A stretch of 64,000 nt of DNA, taken from contig JAUSIP010000016.1 of the NCBI GenBank assembly GCA_030648005.1, positions 1,110 to 65,109 on the forward strand, in the 5' to 3' direction. The position numbers and the translations under genes are program-made. This DNA is from a bacterium (lineage in GTDB: Bacteria > Patescibacteriota > Minisyncoccia > Phycocordibacterales > UBA12445). The notes under the pieces were generated by a model. The model ran no database searches. It was not told where the DNA came from and saw only the letters and a list, made by a program, of their open reading frames with translations. Each line of letters opens with the position of its first letter. Within the stretch, counting starts at the first letter, position 1. This document shows, in pieces, positions 2-49,969 of this stretch.

Positions 2-3000
2 TCAAGTTCTGATTTCAGTATTTGTTGTGTAGCAACCACCTCTAGTAGTAATCCTTCTGTTGCTACTCAAAATACCGACATCAATGGTCCTGGGACAGGC
101 ACTGTCGGTATAAAAACCATTACAGCTGACACGCTAGCCAAAACTGTTACGTTAACTCTCGATACTGCGACAAGATCAGAAAATAGCGACACTCACGACT
201 TCTTACGATTTACGATCGCTGGACTCAAGAATCCTTCTATTCCAAAAGGGATAGATTCATCAGGGTACGTTCTTGATATCAAATCTAAGAATGCTTCAGG
301 AGTGTTACTTGAATCATTCAATGCTAATCCTGTTTATATTGGTGGTGGTACAGCAGGTGGAGGATCTGTGACAACAATCAGGGGTGTTGTTTCTGGGAAC
401 GGTAGTAATTTGAAAGATGTTCCTGTTCACCTCATGTCGCCTTCAACTGGCCCACAAGATGCTACGACCGATGCTAACGGCTTGTATCAGTTCACTAATA
501 TTCCTGTCGGCTCGCAGTTCTTGTCAAATAACTTTGGTGGCGGTAATGAATATATGGTGTTCATTGAGCCATTCATAACCGGTGTTAGTGATGAGAACGG
601 CGCCACAACAACCAACTTCTTCGGTAATACTATGCCGTCACCAGTTATCGCGACCTCTACCAGTCTTATAGGGAAAAACTTCTCTCTTACTCCTGCAAAC
701 ACAGCTTCAATCGCAGCTAATTTCACTGTAAGGTTAACAGCTGCAGCCAATACTTTCACCGCCGCAGAGACCCTCGATGTATTTGCTGGCGGCCCCGGCC
801 AGTTTGTCTCAAGAACTATTACTCCTGGAGCCTCTGCTTTAAGCAACTCAACTCTTACTACCGTGCCTATTCCTAAGGTGAACGGTTCATGGGGTGTTGG
901 TATTAGTCCGCCTATGCCTAAGGGCGGAGGGTTTAGTGGTCCGCCACCATCACCAAATTGGTCTATGCCTAAGCCGATAGAGGTTAAGGTTTCCGGATGT
1001 CCTTCAGCCTGCGTAACATCCGTTAGTGGCTTCGCTACGACCTCCAATATCTTCACGATTTCTACCGCCGACAAAACTATTTCTGGCGTGTTGAAAGATG
1101 GCAGTGGTAATGCTATCGCTAGTGCTATGGTGTTCGCCTTCTCTCCATCGACAGACGCCGGAGGAGGTACAGGCAACAGCACTCAAAGTTCTACAGTGGG
1201 CGCCTTCTCTATTAAGGTGGTTGCCGGAACATATGTGGTTGGTGCGTACTCTCCGGGTATTGGTGAATCGAAGAAGGTTACTGTTGTTGTTGATAGTTCA
1301 GGCAATGTTTTTGTCGACGGCAATGCGACTGCTTCTACTGGCTCGTCAGGAGCTAATCCTTTCACACTTAAAATGGTTAAGCCTGACTACTCTATTACAG
1401 GTCAGGTAACGGATGGTTCGAGCGCAGTCGGTAACGCCCCAGTCTTTGCTTACCGTACGGATGCCCCAGGTCATGCCGATGCCATGAGTGACTCTTCAAC
1501 AGGAAACTATACACTTTACGTCAGTAATGGTACGTGGAAAGTAAGCTCGTTCATTCCTGGGTTTGGTCCAATGGCTGAGCAGACGGTGACTGTTTCAGGT
1601 AGTAGTCAGTCAAATATAAATTTCGCGCCATCTTCCAGTCAGACCTTCAGTATCTTGTCCGGTAATATCTATGAAGATACAAACAGGAGTGATACCTTTA
1701 CGGCCGGAGAGGGTTTGTCCGGTGCGGTAATTCGAGTTTCTAATGGCACAAATGTAAATGAAGGTGTGTCGAGTACTGACGGCGCTTATACTGTTCGAGT
1801 GCCATCCGGTACAGGTTACAAGATCCAAGATATTTTCAGCCCGACTTATGGTAGGATTGCGCCGATTGGAGATAGTGGCGCGGCAATTGGTACGATTAAT
1901 TTAACTGCTTCAACTACTAAGAATATCCGTATTCCTATCCGAGGAACTGTCAGTATCATAATTAAGGATTCAAGTGGCAATCCGCTTACAGTACCTAAGG
2001 CGTTTATTGATCTCTTTGACAATACGACTGGTTTGGGTAATCACGTAGAGATTGATAACGGAACCACTACATCCATACTCATGGCATCAAGCACCTCAGC
2101 CTATACTGTGAAAGCTTATATACAGGGTATTCCTCCAGCTAATATTTCTGTTGCGTCTGATGATGCCGGAACAACAGTCACATCTGGTAGGATAACGATC
2201 AACCGCGCTACTGAATATATTAAGATTGTGGTTAACACCGCCTCGGCTGGTATGAGCACTATCTCCGGTACCGTATATAAAGATTCCGCTACATCCGGCA
2301 ACGAACTCGAAGGCGCATGGATTCAATTCGTCGATCAGACCAACGGTGTTCAGTTTGGTACCCAGTCTACATCTAGCGGAAGATACAGCATAAAGGCTTT
2401 AGATGGTACTTATCAGATACTTGTATCAAAGCCTCAATATGTTGCTACTCCAACAACTTTAGTTGTTTCAGGCGCAACAACACAGAACATGACCATGACG
2501 CAATCCTCCCTGACTATCTCCGGTACTGTGACATCTGGTGGTGTGGCCGCCGCTAGCTCATTCGTTCGTGGTGAGAAAGTGGGAGGAGGTCAAGCCATAA
2601 CACAAACAGATACAAATGGTACTTATACCTTGAACGTTACTCCCGGTACTTGGAGAGTCTTCGCAGCTGCTGATGGTTATGCAGAGGCCGGTTATGCTTC
2701 TAATCCGCTGACTGTTTCTAGTTCGCAATCCAGTATCAATGTCGCTCTTTCAACCGCTGCATCCGTTCAGTCAAAGTTGGCTACTTCCAACACCTTTAGT
2801 GATACTTCAGCAGGAACTTTCAGTGACACTACGGTTAACCTTAAGGTAAGTGTTGATGCAAATGCTTTTGGTTCTGCTGGGGCGAGTTCCTACTTCACCG
2901 CCAAGGAGACTACTAACTATCCAAATACAACTAGTGTTAATATTGTCGCTAATAAAGCTAAGGATATCAGTGCTTTCTCGGGAGGTAGCCAGGTTACAAA

Positions 3001-8099: not shown

Positions 8100-8148
8100 A
8101 AGCTGTTTTATTCTGACGGCCGTCAGAATAAAACAGCTTTCGGATTTT
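8100..8148 (+). terminator. Rho-independent terminator (perfect 20-bp stem)
   Basis: aagctgttttattctgacgg / ccgtcagaataaaacagctt then tcggatttttg. Confidence 0.75.
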
Positions 8149-8153
8149 TGACA

Positions 8154-8183
8154 ATAAAAAAAGGTCAGGGGGATTCCCTGACC
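8154..8183 (-). terminator. Rho-independent terminator for the GC-rich minus-strand gene
   Basis: ggtcaggg-ggattc-cctgacc hairpin; on the minus strand it is followed by a T7 run. Confidence 0.6.
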
Positions 8184-8202
8184 TTAGCACTCGAACCGAG
8201 TA

Positions 8203-12479: not shown

Positions 12480-12497
12480 TCCGCCGGCTGGCGGAGG
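12480..12497. repeat. GC palindrome tccgccGgctggcggagg (copy 1 of 2; the second copy is inside infA)
   Basis: 17 of 18 nt identical to 45400-45417; forms the hairpin ccgcc-ggct-ggcgg; its GGAGG part doubles as the SD for the GTG at 12508. Confidence 0.7.
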
Positions 12498-12507
12498 AGG
12501 TGCGTTT

Positions 12508-13380
12508 GTGAAAAAAGAAAAACCGAAGCCGTACTACGGGATCTCATGTCTCCATGACAGAAAGCAGATGCAGGATATCCTGACTTATGTTAAGGCCAAG
12601 AAGATTACCGGTAGGCGGATCATGGCCGGGACACATATGTCGTCTGCATCCTTCCGTGGGTTCGAAGTAGAGCATCCAAAAAGAACATTGAGGCTTGACG
12701 AAGTACGGAGCATCTACTCTTCGATTGAACGACCGAAGCAGCGGGGCCCAGATAGAGATTGGTTCGATGCGAATGTTTTCCGGGTCGTCCAATTCAACAG
12801 TGAAGGTCCGGCTGTGATAGACGCTGAGCTACTTCTTGTTAATCAGATGATACATATTCCAGATGGCGGACGGGAAGTCAACGTTATCGATCAGTTTGTT
12901 GAAGGTTTCCAGATCAACCACGCTCTGCCTAATCCGGATAAACTACGGTGGTTTAGAGACAAACAGATGTGGAGAAATATGCAGATCATCCTTCAGCTTG
13001 GTGAGTTGGCGATGGAAGAAACCGGTAATGATCCGGAGGGTCTGGCTGTGCTAGTGGAGAGCTATGGGGATGCCATCGACTATGTTCTTTGGGATGGGTC
13101 GGAAGATCATCAAGCAGTCTTCGATGCTGAATTTGCCAGGCCGTATCTTCGCGCGATTCGCGAGCATTGCCCAGATCTGGGCATTGCCGTATCAGGCAAT
13201 CTAGGACCAAACAGTATGCGTCTTGTAGATCCTCTTCGTGCAGAATTTCCAGATCTTTCCGTCGATGCAGAGAGTGAACTCCGGGATGAGAACGACTCAT
13301 TACTTATGGCTAAGGCCTTGAGCTATCTTGATGAATGCGCCAAGAGGTGGGAAAAGAAAATAAATATAGAGGATTGTTAA
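12508..13380 (+). CDS. Divergent TrpF-like (phosphoribosylanthranilate isomerase family) TIM-barrel protein, orphan
   Basis: C-terminal GIAVSGNLGPNSM...DLSVDAESELRDEN...LMAKALSYL parallels the TrpF block ILAGGLNPENV...GVDVSSGVE..G.KD..KI..F. GTG start at 12508 with GGAGGAGG 7 nt upstream is preferred over the TTG at 12472. GC about 52%. Confidence 0.35.
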   Translation: MKKEKPKPYYGISCLHDRKQMQDILTYVKAKKITGRRIMAGTHMSSASFRGFEVEHPKRTLRLDEVRSIYSSIERPKQRGPDRDWFDANVFRVVQFNSEGPAVIDAELLLVNQMIHIPDGGREVNVIDQFVEGFQINHALPNPDKLRWFRDKQMWRNMQIILQLGELAMEETGNDPEGLAVLVESYGDAIDYVLWDGSEDHQAVFDAEFARPYLRAIREHCPDLGIAVSGNLGPNSMRLVDPLRAEFPDLSVDAESELRDENDSLLMAKALSYLDECAKRWEKKINIEDC

Positions 13381-15365: not shown

Positions 15366-16379
15366 ATGCAGGGTATGAATCCTGAAGAGAACAGAGAAAG
15401 TAAGAATGGCCTGAGCCATTCGATATTTTGGATCGAGCTGGAGAAGATCAAACCGAATCCTTACCAGCCGAGGCACGAATTCGATCAGGCACAGTTGAAT
15501 GACTTGGCGGAGTCTATTCGTCAGTACGGGGTTCTTCAGCCCCTTGTTGCCACTAGGAAGGAGTTCAAGACAGAAGATGGCGGACTCGGTGTTGAATATG
15601 AGCTAATCGCTGGAGAGAGGCGTCTCCGTGCTTCGAAGATAGCAGGTATATCACAGGTGCCGGTGGTTATCAGGACAGGTGAGCAATCTGATCTTGTTAA
15701 ACTTGAGCTGGCGATAATTGAGAACATTCAAAGAGAGGATTTAAATTCAGTAGATCGAGCGCGCGCCTTCAAACAACTTGTAGATAAATTTAATTTCAAA
15801 CACGCAGAGATAGCCGTTAAGGTTGGTAAGAGCCGAGAATATGTCTCCAACACCATGAGGATTTTAGATTTGCCGGAGGAGATACTTGAGGCGGTGTCGG
15901 CCAAGAAGATTACCGAAGGACACACAAGGCCACTCTTGATGCTTATTGATCGCAAGGAAGAGCAGATGACGCTCTTCAAGGAGATCATGTACAAAAAGCT
16001 TTCAGTTAGGGAGGCAGAAAGCATCGCCAGGAAGATTGCGGTGGAGAAGGTTAGGAAGAAGGATTATGGCGTTGATCCGGAGATCATAGACTTGGAGTCG
16101 AAGCTGACGGAGAAGCTTGGTACTAGAGTTGCGATAGAGAAGAGGGAATTCGGCGGGCGAGTGACTATCGACTTCTTCTCCAAAGAGGACGTTCACAACC
16201 TCCTTAGTCTTATAACTTCAGGCAAGATTGCTGCTCCGGCGGATCTGGCGAAGTTTGCAAATGGAATAGCCTCCAATGCTCCGACCTCAGAGAACGGCGC
16301 GCCGATAGACGATGTGCCAAAAGCGGAGAAAGATATGGACGATCCTGATCTGTATTCTCTAAAAAATTTTAGCGTTTAA
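15366..16379 (+). CDS. parB: ParB/Spo0J-like partition protein with extended acidic C-terminal tail; no adjacent parA
   Basis: IELEKIKPNPYQPR...YELIAGERRLRASKIAG...VPVVIR ParB box; HTH region. Confidence 0.8.
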   Translation: MQGMNPEENRESKNGLSHSIFWIELEKIKPNPYQPRHEFDQAQLNDLAESIRQYGVLQPLVATRKEFKTEDGGLGVEYELIAGERRLRASKIAGISQVPVVIRTGEQSDLVKLELAIIENIQREDLNSVDRARAFKQLVDKFNFKHAEIAVKVGKSREYVSNTMRILDLPEEILEAVSAKKITEGHTRPLLMLIDRKEEQMTLFKEIMYKKLSVREAESIARKIAVEKVRKKDYGVDPEIIDLESKLTEKLGTRVAIEKREFGGRVTIDFFSKEDVHNLLSLITSGKIAAPADLAKFANGIASNAPTSENGAPIDDVPKAEKDMDDPDLYSLKNFSV

Positions 16380-44011: not shown

Positions 44012-45271
44012 ATGAAAAGAAAAGTTGTTGAAGATCTAATATTTAAAAAGGCGCCCGTCTATCAAATGGACGAAGTCAATGACAACAGGGTGGTGAGTAA
44101 TGGGAACCGAGGCTCCGGAAGAAAGTTTTATGTGTATGCACTTATTGTTATAGCCGGCTCGGTCCTGGTACTTGGCTTGTTTGTACTTTTGTCCTCAACC
44201 TTCTCAAGGGTTTCTGTGATGGTTTTAACGACAAATCGAGAGATTATATTGGATGACCTTGTTCCACTCAACAAAGATGGCGCAGGGGGCGGGATAAAGT
44301 ACGAGATGATGAGTTTGAAGGAAATGGAGTCTGGATATGTTCCTACTAGCGGTAATAAACTCGTGTCTAAGTACGCTACTGGTATTGTGACTATTTACAA
44401 TTCATTTAGCCCCGCGTCCCAAATTTTGGTTGCCGGCACAAGGCTTGAGACCACAGATGGTAAGATCTACAAAATAGACAAAACAGTATCGATCCCAGGC
44501 ATGTCGTCAGTTGCTGTATCTGTTAAGGCCGGAGAAGCGGGCGTAAAATACAATATACCCCCGACGAACTTTACTATTCCAGGCCTTAAAGACAGCCCGA
44601 AGTTTTCGAAGATATATGCTAAATCTGTTAAAGATATTTCCGGAGGCTGGTCCGGGGAATTGAAGGTGGCTTCCTCGGCGGATATCACAAAGACGCGGCT
44701 GAATTTACAGGACAGTCTAAAAAAGAAACTGATCAAGAAGGCTCTAGCGGAAACCCCGAAAGGTTTCTTACTTTGGGAAGATGGGATGCTTATCAGTTTC
44801 AGCGACAACACAATAGACAACTCTTCTTTAATTGGGGCTGATGGAGATAAGATGAATCTCCAGGTGAATGGTGTACTCCGCGCAATAATGATATTAGAAG
44901 ATGATCTTAAAAATTTTATAGTAGCCAAAAAGAAAGCTGAGCTGGTCGGTGGGACTAAGTTTGTTATCGACAATCCAGGCAAACTTAGTTTTAAGATATT
45001 AAATAAGGATAAAATAAACACAGACGGAACAAGCAGCGTTCTTGCAAGGATAACGGGCAAACAATATATAATGTGGGATTTTGATGAAAGTTCTCTTAAG
45101 AATAAACTGAGTGGTGTAAAACGATCTAAATATCAGGATGTTTTCAAGGAGTTCCCGGCGATAGAAGAGGCTGCCGCAGTGTTCTACCCATCATGGGCTT
45201 TCTATTTTCCAATCGACACAAATAGGATAGAAATAGCCTTAGCACCTAAGGAGGGGGTTGACTTAAAATAG
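44012..45271 (+). CDS. Bitopic membrane protein (about 40-aa cytoplasmic N-tail, one TM, large extracytoplasmic domain); putative partner of the upstream actin-like ATPase
   Basis: RKFYVYALIVIAGSVLVLGLFVLL TM helix; tightly linked (4-nt gap) to the previous gene. Confidence 0.4.
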   Translation: MKRKVVEDLIFKKAPVYQMDEVNDNRVVSNGNRGSGRKFYVYALIVIAGSVLVLGLFVLLSSTFSRVSVMVLTTNREIILDDLVPLNKDGAGGGIKYEMMSLKEMESGYVPTSGNKLVSKYATGIVTIYNSFSPASQILVAGTRLETTDGKIYKIDKTVSIPGMSSVAVSVKAGEAGVKYNIPPTNFTIPGLKDSPKFSKIYAKSVKDISGGWSGELKVASSADITKTRLNLQDSLKKKLIKKALAETPKGFLLWEDGMLISFSDNTIDNSSLIGADGDKMNLQVNGVLRAIMILEDDLKNFIVAKKKAELVGGTKFVIDNPGKLSFKILNKDKINTDGTSSVLARITGKQYIMWDFDESSLKNKLSGVKRSKYQDVFKEFPAIEEAAAVFYPSWAFYFPIDTNRIEIALAPKEGVDLK

Positions 45272-45298: not shown

Positions 45299-45544
45299 TT
45301 GAATATGGAAAATAGTAAAGATATAGTCCACCTGGATCAAGAAGTAGACGGTACTGTTGTTGAAACATTACCCAATATGATGTTCCGGGTAGACCTTAGT
45401 CCGCCAGCTGGCGGAGGCAAAATCATTTTGGCCTATCTTGCGGGCAAAATGAGGATGAATCGAATCAAGGTTCTAATTGGCGATAAGGTAAGAGTCAAGC
45501 TTGATATCTATGGAGTTAAGGGCAGAGTAATTAGAAGATATTAA
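45299..45544 (+). CDS. infA: Translation initiation factor IF-1, with 4-aa insertion (SPPAGGGK) in the OB-fold
   Basis: GTVVETLPNMMFRVDL...GKMRMNRIKVLIGDKVRVKLDIYGVKGRVIRR aligned to E. coli IF-1; the insertion is encoded by the palindrome ccgccagctggcgg. Confidence 0.9.
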   Translation: MNMENSKDIVHLDQEVDGTVVETLPNMMFRVDLSPPAGGGKIILAYLAGKMRMNRIKVLIGDKVRVKLDIYGVKGRVIRRY

Positions 45545-49408: not shown

Positions 49409-49435
49409 AAACCGCCAGAGGTCTGGCGGTTTGGC
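49409..49435 (-). terminator. Terminator for minus-strand gene 49479..49736
   Basis: accgccaga-ggtc-tggcggt; on the minus strand it is followed by tttt; a second hairpin taagcag-taggt-ctgctta lies at 49441-49462. Confidence 0.6.
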
Positions 49436-49736: not shown

Positions 49737-49969
49737 TTTGCTTCTACTCCCGTCTGTTGATTTAGTTGTCGAATAACTCGGCTAATTTCTATCTTCAAGT
49801 ATAGCATACTAAATATCAAACTGTCAATAGCAAATACAAAATACCATTATTTTATAAGGGGGATATTTTAATTTTGATTTCAGCAGATTCTATGTGATCA
49901 CAAGTTACTAAGTCTACTCATCCGCCCAGGGCGGATTGCGTGGACTAAGTACTTGCCGACCCCGACTCA

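Follow-up and report, generated by a model that had tools for sequence, protein, structure and literature searches.

The stretch of DNA analysed here, referred to as the window, comprises 64,000 nucleotides (nt) of contig JAUSIP010000016.1 from a bacterium of the Phycocordibacterales (Patescibacteriota) and has a GC content of approximately 44%. Its infA gene, which encodes translation initiation factor IF-1, carries a short GC-rich palindrome within the reading frame. This palindrome is one copy of a dispersed 16-bp palindromic repeat family of the form T-CCGCC-[AGCT, or GGCT/AGCC]-GGCGG-A, which is present in many low-GC genomes (Patescibacteria, Bacteroidota and some others) as well as in phage contigs. 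The constraint on the copies lies on the nucleotides and not on the flexible Pro-Pro-Ala-Gly-Gly (PPAGG) peptide. The features at the two sites of the window are the following.

45305 to 45544, plus strand: infA (IF-1), 79 amino acids (aa) from ATG 45305; the mechanically called open reading frame (ORF) starts at TTG 45299
45400 to 45415, no strand: canonical 16-bp perfect palindrome TCCGCC-AGCT-GGCGGA in infA, supported by the codons read, the gap against homologues, the RNA hairpin and the loop in the model
45416 to 45417, plus strand: GG after the palindrome, the first two bases of the Gly38 codon, completing an 18-mer
12480 to 12495, no strand: second family copy TCCGCC-GGCT-GGCGGA (loop variant, TCCGCCGGCTGGCGGA), intergenic, hairpin predicted

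The infA product matched PF01176 with an E-value of 8e-15 and 54.6 bits (cut-off 30.2) and was 100% identical to the NCBI protein P0001 from a metagenome-assembled genome (MAG). By IF-1 homology, the window belongs to the Patescibacteria, within a Paceibacteria/'Vogelbacteria'-like group. On its 3' side, rpmJ, rpsM, rpsK, rpsD, rpoA and rplQ follow in this order. The first-pass annotation had pointed to the 18-mer at 45400-45417 (TCCGCCAGCTGGCGGAGG) and to a 17/18 identical copy at 12480-12497 (TCCGCCGGCTGGCGGAGG) between clpB and the next gene, and both coordinates and sequences proved exact. However, the perfect palindrome was found to span 16 nt instead of 14 nt (T-CCGCCAGCTGGCGG-A, 45400-45415; TCCGCCAGCTGGCGGA). 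The codons at 45398-45418 read AGT CCG CCA GCT GGC GGA GGC (S-P-P-A-G-G-G), those of the palindrome spanning S32 to G37, and SPPA amounts to a net gain of four residues, not only compared to E. coli, as already annotated, but also to every solved IF-1 and to most of approximately 30 close relatives.

In the AlphaFold model (mean predicted local distance difference test, pLDDT, of 79.5), IF-1 adopts an OB (oligonucleotide/oligosaccharide-binding) fold with template modelling (TM) scores of 0.78-0.92 to solved IF-1 in Foldseek. In this 79-aa protein, the loop in question is formed by residues 32-38, at which the pLDDT falls and which are flanked by strands 26-31 and 39-45; it is therefore the beta2-beta3 loop and not the L12 loop named at first. 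The reported 30S contacts of IF-1 are the beta1-beta2 loop (h44), the short beta3-beta4 helix (530 loop, h44) and the beta3/beta5 face (S12) (PMC10913371). The beta2-beta3 loop is not among these published contacts, which may be why the insertion is tolerated. For the mRNA, a hairpin with a 6-bp stem, a 4-nt loop and -11 kcal/mol was predicted over the palindrome. The GG at 45416-45417 probably stems from the host Gly of the ancestral GxG loop and lies outside the repeat unit, since uninserted relatives have GGT GCT GGT or GGA GGG GGC there, and since second copies found without flank constraint have no conserved bases beyond the 16-mer.

The infA DNA of seven relatives was read codon by codon. 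Among the approximately 30 closest sequences aligned, most IF-1 proteins have 75 aa and a GxG loop, so that related proteins do not all share the insertion. Where the canonical peptide is present, the nucleotide palindrome is present as well: P0004 (GGT CCG CCA GCT GGC GGA AAG) has the identical 16-mer at a net gain of three residues. In P0003 (GCT CCA GCG GGC GGA GAA AGC) the copy has decayed and no hairpin is left, while P0005 (GGT GCT GGT) and P0006 (GGA GGG GGC) have empty loops, and P0007 and P0037 carry other, non-palindromic insertions at the same position. P0002 contains a different perfect 14-nt palindrome (CGCCTGCGCAGGCG) in this loop, which is not forced by its peptide and was not seen elsewhere in 2.5 Mb of fetched loci. 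As the rpoA genes of the P0003 and P0005 genomes are closer to each other (89% identity) than either is to the window (85% each), the infA carriers are not a clade. Judged from these sequences, the palindrome is unchanged in some relatives and decayed, replaced or missing in others, and these states do not follow clades. Between the window and P0004, the gene upstream of infA is 44% identical, 28 of 64 same-residue infA codons differ synonymously, and by our count 8 of 21 four-fold codons are identical, compared to five of five four-fold sites in the palindrome.

The second copy in the window is located 30 nt past the clpB stop (12450), and its 3' arm merges into the Shine-Dalgarno sequence (GGAGGAGG) of the next gene, for which NCBI gives a GTG start at 12508 and a 290-aa orphan product. 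Neither copy has a T-run or was called by the intrinsic-terminator scan, so neither qualifies as a terminator. An orthologous empty site for the 12480 copy was not found, the downstream ORF having one homologue, whose contig begins inside the gene.

Within the window, the match between the two 18-mers is not remarkable. The probability of about 1e-4 given for it in the first-pass annotation is valid only for a word fixed beforehand; for such a pre-chosen 18-mer, 0.04 matches are expected in the window at up to three mismatches. This word was picked post hoc, though, and nine independent 18-mer pairs with at most one mismatch were counted in the window (approximately three expected by pair counting), of which seven are long-range and comparable. 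In addition, the PPAGG peptide (CCN CCN GCN GGN GGN) alone forces five of the seven pairs of the 14-mer. Together with the unrelated insertions in P0007 and P0037, these counts would suit an ordinary lineage-specific expansion of the IF-1 loop, the palindrome being a by-product of Pro/Ala/Gly codons and the 12480 match a chance event. We regard this explanation as highly improbable, since the P0004 16-mer is identical including its five four-fold sites against the 28/64 synonymous differences in the rest of the gene, and since the external family evidence given below (hairpin census, in-frame matches, PPAGG codons and the test with triose-phosphate isomerase, TPI) contradicts it. What is unusual in the window is its content of GC-rich hairpins, with 20 found versus 6.2 +/- 2.3 in shuffles (approximately three-fold excess). 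Four of the form TCCGCC-N(3-10)-GGCGGA were present compared to approximately 0.2 expected by our own estimate, the arms occurring 19 and 40 times. Half-sites, including the Chi-like GCTGGCGG, were 2-4 times above Markov expectation, a mild excess that Gly codons can explain. The significance of the repeat consequently rests on the hairpin excess and the external data, not on the 18-mer pair.

Two side observations concern the infA locus. At 45412-45434, the 3' arm and host bases form GGAGG with in-frame ATT/TTG 7-10 nt further on, and this Shine-Dalgarno-like motif could cause ribosome pausing or spurious internal initiation. Directly upstream of infA in all relatives examined, and at 44012-45271 in the window, lies a gene for a protein of approximately 420 aa with a weak Baseplate_J-like Pfam match (also in L002, L006, L007 and L009), an unusual neighbour for an infA-rpmJ-rpsM operon.

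A dispersed repeat in low-GC genomes and phage contigs

The recurrence of the 18-mer is not confined to the window. A scan of one genome per species with the word TCCGCCRGCTGGCGGARG, a pattern that does not fix the codon before the repeat, returned at least 120 loci, and in-frame copies, read as (N/S)PPAGG(G), were found in dozens of unrelated conserved proteins, so the sequence is far from unique. Among the matches listed, about 21 low-GC loci belonged to Patescibacteria and about 25 to Bacteroidota, and the contexts in low-GC DNA were hairpin tips, the D-loop of displaced 5' tRNA fragments and long ORFs, whose clear cases in conserved proteins read PPAGG; in GC-rich genomes the word was ordinary coding sequence in the frame ...IRQLAEE.... 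In L010, L028 and L124 the 16-mer forms the tip of terminator-like hairpins. The copies occupy places that can accommodate an additional hairpin at little cost, namely at terminator or hairpin tips, in the D-loop of tRNA fragments and in surface loops of proteins. A metagenome scan for the 20-mer AATCCGCCRGCTGGCGGAGG gave at least 121 matches (median local GC of 0.41 among those listed), where a few occurrences are expected by chance according to our estimate.

A census of 60 low-GC loci (424 kb) showed that the stem TCCGCC accounts for 74 of the 118 GC-rich 6+4 hairpins, with AGCT as the loop in 59, GGCT/AGCC in 12 and AACT in three, and that other hairpins recur at most twice. At least seven loci hold two to three copies; the flanks of second copies within one locus are unrelated, and the outer T...A pair is retained in all of them. 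Not counting the copy by which a locus was retrieved, there is one copy per approximately 41 kb, and the density in low-GC loci is about one copy per 30-41 kb, compared to two canonical copies in the 64 kb of the window.

Of the 121 metagenome matches listed, 58 fall into ORFs of 200 aa or more and there read NPPAGGG, a peptide that is fixed in that frame by the 20-mer search word itself. Within these matches, SecA (5, plus L072), TPI (5), an SDR/FabG-like reductase (4; SDR, short-chain dehydrogenase/reductase) and MiaA (4, plus L092) were the proteins most often identified. Further matches fell into MiaB, a Tyr-tRNA-synthetase-like protein, a Mur ligase, YebC, a class II aldolase and a TopA zinc ribbon (also L030), as well as DnaE, DnaX, UvrB, GatB, YchF, TrpS, sigma-70 region 4, GrpE, HtrA and L3. 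The identities are our own motif reading, with SecA, MiaA, IF-1 and TPI confirmed by search. The clear matches in conserved protein genes listed from the genome scan also read PPAGG. Alignment to solved homologues placed gaps exactly at the element (four residues in SecA, three in MiaA and four in IF-1). In TopA, the copy is situated in the third Zn ribbon, the loop of which exceeds in length those of its two paralogues within the protein. The canonical word encoded PPAGG in 99 of 103 cases across 1.26 Mb of low-GC loci, and PPxGG with another x was rare. Finally, four TPI homologues picked by protein similarity alone all carried T-CCGCC-(AGCT/AGCC/GGCT)-GGCGG-A, preceded by D, R, S and G, respectively. 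The first-pass view of a short GC-rich palindromic element inserted in-frame into an OB-fold loop is thereby supported and extended to a family.

An adapter or linker introduced during sequencing or assembly would likewise be a perfect palindrome with identical copies in many data sets. Such an artefact is hardly credible here, as the repeat was found in isolate genomes and MAGs from many laboratories and assemblers, sits in-frame at orthologous positions, and is heritable and decaying in related lineages.

In viral contigs, the 16-mer sites were distributed over local GC classes of <0.45, 0.45-0.55 and >=0.55 as 9/16/31, compared to 1/5/85, 2/0/20, 10/3/14 and 2/1/18 for four composition-matched palindromes. 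Eight of the ten low-GC sites of the third control belong to one phage terminator, leaving three independent contexts, and this control shares the inner 14-mer. The total count in viral contigs was not enriched (55 vs 91, 22, 27 and 21), and enrichment appeared only once the sites were stratified by local GC. These data bear on a convergent origin in situ, in which the hairpins would be generated independently at Gly-Gly codons (GGCGGA) by template switching, be it quasi-palindrome correction or snap-back synthesis. Hairpin creation by this route is already documented, PMC8794818 describing that template switching both creates and maintains hairpins, and the 14-nt palindrome in the same infA loop of P0002 as well as a symmetric arm duplication in Bacteroidota, (TCCGCC)2-AGCT-(GGCGGA)2, would fit. 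However, the AGCT loop and the outer T-A pair are alike at hundreds of unrelated sites across phyla, many sites are non-coding or without flanking Gly codons, and palindromes of matched composition show no enrichment. This origin is therefore largely refuted for the family as a whole and very improbable.

No description of the word, the peptide or the phenomenon was found in the papers and preprints searched, subscription literature not being covered.

Several further contexts of the repeat were observed. In diverse phyla of the Candidate Phyla Radiation (CPR), a mini-cassette was found (L027, L034 in tandem, L086, L102, L105, L107 and L110, also L022). It starts with a copy of the first approximately 31 nt of tRNA-Asn(GTT), in which the D-loop AAT is replaced by the 16-mer (net +13 nt), followed by an approximately 85-aa YhbQ-like GIY-YIG ORF (KIYIGQT.DL..RL..HN...REKQLKSYRGR), whose 3' end runs into an intact tRNA-Asn gene. 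The tRNA-Asn fragment co-varies with the host tRNA in each genome, and in L102 and L105 a group I intron (Rfam) follows a few hundred nt downstream. Rfam searches of the loci with the tRNA-fragment context returned tRNAs and group I introns only. Fragments from the 5' end of other tRNA species, with the 16-mer in or beside the D-arm, lie directly upstream of another tRNA gene in L079 (6087-6140) and L061 (approximately 130-190).

The 16-mer of Bacteroidota and their phage-like contigs usually has the extended form CCTCCGCCAGCTGGCGGAGG, with a (G/T)AGGGGG box 2-8 nt behind it (L012, L018, L060, L077, L082, L096, L099, L103, L104 and L125; viral L136, L172 and L176). Some Bacteroidota copies show the above-mentioned arm duplication, and the extended form may be a larger composite repeat. 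Elsewhere, the 16-mer is nested in the loop of another widespread hairpin repeat, GTCATCCCGA...GGGATC or GTCATTGCGAG...GAAGCAATC (L063, L087, L094, L118, L119, L123, L131, L145, L464, L468, L498, L507 and L514). Regarding proteins, the disordered C-terminal tail of a DnaK in L045 (4616-4680) contains two copies at a distance of 51 nt (…GGNPPAGGGNVRDAEFEEKHPPAGGEEGED…). A few copies in other frames of long ORFs (LRQPAEL, SAGWRIS) occur in L065 (approximately 805-822), L468 (2753) and L463 (7808-7851); either non-PPAGG frames are tolerated now and then, or the ORFs concerned do not represent genes.

Conservation, turnover and origin of the copies

Where orthologues share a copy, the four-fold sites around it are 34% identical (285/844), which means that the flanking synonymous sites are saturated. 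The stem behaves differently from these flanks. A total of 202 canonical stems was counted versus two compensated variants, although two of the stem pairs join two wobble positions and could covary freely. The mismatch spectrum comprises 204 perfect stems and seven with one mismatch, while stems with two mismatches do not exceed the background. Transitions account for the variation of the 4-nt centre, and a given variant tends to be shared by the members of an orthologue group (Fisher p = 2.7e-4), pointing to descent at those sites. Taken together, saturated flanking synonymous sites, an invariant stem and the near-exclusive codons of PPAGG show that the element acts as nucleic acid, be it DNA or RNA. 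The invariance of the stem and the sharp peak of the mismatch spectrum also favour recognition by a sequence-specific factor, irrespective of whether the repeat is selfish or a functional site. However, exact-match searches miss decayed copies, and the apparent conservation is inflated for this reason.

The extent of turnover can be seen in TPI, where PPAGG was present in 22 of 111 homologues, decayed in 24 (NSPAKG, NLPAKK, NSSAG, DSLAGG and others) and missing in 65. The present/absent pattern required 23 steps on a neighbour-joining tree, compared to 36 with shuffled labels. The residue before PPAGG is the local host residue (WEN-, WER-, WES-, FKD-), and many empty sites read x-G-GA(Y/F)TGE, which suggests that the 16-mer replaces 3-4 bases at NNT|GGN-GGN with a net gain of 12 nt.

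On this basis, the infA copy would have arisen from a copy-and-insert event at the DNA level, in which the 16-mer took the place of 3-4 host bases at NNT|GGN-GGN in the Gly-rich tip of the beta2-beta3 hairpin, probably aided by microhomology to the GGCGGA(GG) arm. It could persist there since the loop is free of reported 30S contact, at the cost of four extra residues in IF-1 and a hairpin of -11 kcal/mol in the mRNA, while selection would purge copies everywhere but in permissive loops. We favour, with moderate confidence, that the family is a non-autonomous selfish mini-repeat handled by a putative trans-acting factor that recognises the invariant stem.

A number of results weigh against a selfish repeat. 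The evidence from the source genome consists of 64 kb with two canonical copies. The flanks show neither a target-site duplication nor a consensus outside the 16-mer, and the net size varies, with +12 or +9 nt in proteins and +13 nt in the tRNA fragment. An all-against-all BLAST of the ORFs from 77 low-GC loci revealed no transposase-like or other common neighbour gene; the sole shared neighbour was the YhbQ-like GIY-YIG ORF in eight loci, tied to the tRNA-Asn context, and none was seen in the window. Furthermore, the peaked mismatch spectrum is not predicted by a simple neutral decay of a selfish repeat, and the filling of the same codon position in diverged orthologues, together with the shared loop variants, suggests long retention under constraint.

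These last points would be expected if the copies of the same family were functional cis-elements kept for very long periods by purifying selection on the nucleotides. Such elements could be 6+4+6 inverted repeats bound by a dimeric DNA-binding protein, distributed over the chromosome in the manner of parS, the Noc-binding site (NBS) or matS, or RNA hairpins recognised by a protein. Since compact genomes leave hardly any intergenic DNA free, short insertions would be the way in which new sites are acquired. The stem that stays invariant despite its two wobble-wobble pairs, the centre that varies as expected of a spacer or loop, the diverged four-fold flanks around perfect shared copies, the loop variants inherited within orthologue groups and the mismatch peak at zero all speak for such sites, and a density of approximately 1 per 30-40 kb is closer to distributed binding sites than to uptake or Chi sequences. 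On the other hand, about half of the TPI insertions have decayed, in a present/absent pattern of approximately 23 steps on the 111-taxon tree, and P0003 retains a decayed infA copy, which most relatives lack altogether. Copies in displaced tRNA fragments, in loops of other repeats and in phage contigs fit poorly as well, no candidate binding protein was identified, and the blindness of exact-match searches to decayed copies inflates the apparent conservation. Overall, we consider functional cis-elements a possible but rather doubtful explanation.

Relation to known repeats and binding sites

Among described systems, in-frame insertions of this kind are known from the Rickettsia palindromic elements (RPE), reportedly introduced by Ogata et al. 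in 2000. RPE are approximately 100-150 bp long, confined to one genus and diverge between copies, and they occur in-frame in conserved protein genes and in RNA genes. As here, a non-coding palindromic repeat lying in-frame in conserved genes is translated as an extra surface segment and tolerated in essential proteins; the gaps of 3-4 residues in IF-1, SecA and MiaA are in-frame loop segments of this type. In contrast, the present unit measures 16 bp and adds 3-4 residues, its stem is invariant, the flanks are unrelated between copies so that no similarity to an RPE family of 100-150 bp results, and it is spread over several phyla and phage contigs. RPE are also mentioned in PMC1779305 and PMC1458961. 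In behaviour, RPE come nearest to the present repeat, followed by the mitochondrial GC clusters.

The latter, namely mobile GC clusters in yeast mitochondrial DNA (mtDNA) and repetitive hairpin elements in sponge mtDNA, are GC-rich hairpin mini-elements in AT-rich compact genomes (PMC4478555, PMC2800124). Like the present repeat, GC clusters and byp elements are gene-less hairpins that invade coding and RNA genes of compact genomes, but GC clusters are organellar, usually 30-60 bp and sequence-variable. Byp elements are skipped by the ribosome, whereas the present insert, being in-frame and free of stop codons, is presumably translated.

Repetitive extragenic palindromes (REP) and bacterial interspersed mosaic elements (BIME) are mobilised by REP-associated tyrosine transposases (RAYT, TnpA-REP), measure 20-40 bp, are extragenic by definition, bear a GTAG/CGTC tag and are species-specific (PMC3733652). 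They share with the present family that they are short GC-rich interspersed palindromes, perfect or imperfect, often forming hairpins at gene 3' ends. However, about half of the matches listed here are inside long ORFs, including infA, so there is no extragenic restriction; in the loci compared, neither a GTAG/CGTC tag nor any other flank consensus outside the 16-mer was found, nor was a RAYT neighbour found in the 64 kb of the source genome. Miniature inverted-repeat transposable elements (MITE), defined by terminal inverted repeats, a target-site duplication and 50-500 bp, also differ from a 16-bp unit that has no flanking direct repeat and replaces 3-4 host bases.

A density of about one per kb is typical of DNA uptake sequences (Neisseria DUS, Pasteurellaceae USS), which do not form palindromic units. 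Inverted pairs of them are found in terminators. They resemble the repeat in being short words kept at the nucleotide level within genes, in preferred frames and less constrained protein segments, and molecular drive can keep their copies perfect. With two copies in 64 kb and half-sites only mildly above expectation, the window is far from such a density. Thus, the repeat lacks at least one defining feature of REP, of MITE, of uptake sequences and of terminators alike.

The 16-bp parS, the 14-bp NBS of Noc and the 13-bp matS exist in tens of copies per genome, often in genes at conserved positions, and the parS word is shared across phyla. These sites are likewise palindromes of 13-16 bp with distributed copies, and conserved half-sites with a tolerant spacer were found here as well (202 vs 2 stems, variable loop). 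The difference is that they fit native codons, whereas the present copies are made by insertion, and no sequence similarity was identified.

Until now, palindromic repeats lying in-frame in essential genes were an oddity seen in Rickettsia and organelles. What is new is a unit of far smaller size and invariant sequence, embedded in dozens of core proteins, including aminoacyl-tRNA synthetases, across Patescibacteria and at least one other major phylum. This explains many small lineage-specific insertions in CPR proteins, which alignments, phylogenies and structure predictions now treat as protein evolution, and the copies serve as a natural inventory of the loops at which essential proteins tolerate insertions. 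The nature of the factor that recognises TCCGCC-N4-GGCGGA, and the choice between a selfish and a useful repeat, become a tractable question, which is testable since genetic tools for Saccharibacteria exist. If the copies were functional cis-elements, the PPAGG loops of IF-1, SecA and TPI would be the protein-level shadow of a DNA or RNA signal common to Patescibacteria, Bacteroidota and their phages and recognised by a widely distributed putative factor.

Other hairpins and repeats of the window

Two further hairpins of the window have the stem of the family and are possible members of it.

907 to 928, plus strand: possible diverged relative AG-TCCGCC-tatgcctaag-GGCGGA-GG, in-frame as SPPMPKGGG in a 1280-aa surface protein
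49921 to 49935, no strand: possible relative TCCGCC-CAG-GGCGGA, intergenic, at the tip of a longer stem

The former has the stem and the AG/GG flanks of the infA copy with a loop of 10 nt, and the hairpin of the latter was predicted at -18.9 kcal/mol (z = -3.6). Another hairpin at 49412-49429 consists of the arms CCGCCAG/CTGGCGG followed by TTT. An Rfam scan of the window returned four tRNAs only and no RNA family for the palindrome.

At 8100-8139, a 40-nt perfect palindrome (AAGCTGTTTTATTCTGACGGCCGTCAGAATAAAACAGCTT) was observed, with a second strong hairpin at 8161-8185. Finally, a direct repeat of approximately 19 nt (GGCCAAGAAGATTACCG core) links positions 12593-12611, in the orphan gene 3' of the 12480 hairpin, with 15898-15916, a site 3.3 kb away, and this pair may be due to chance.

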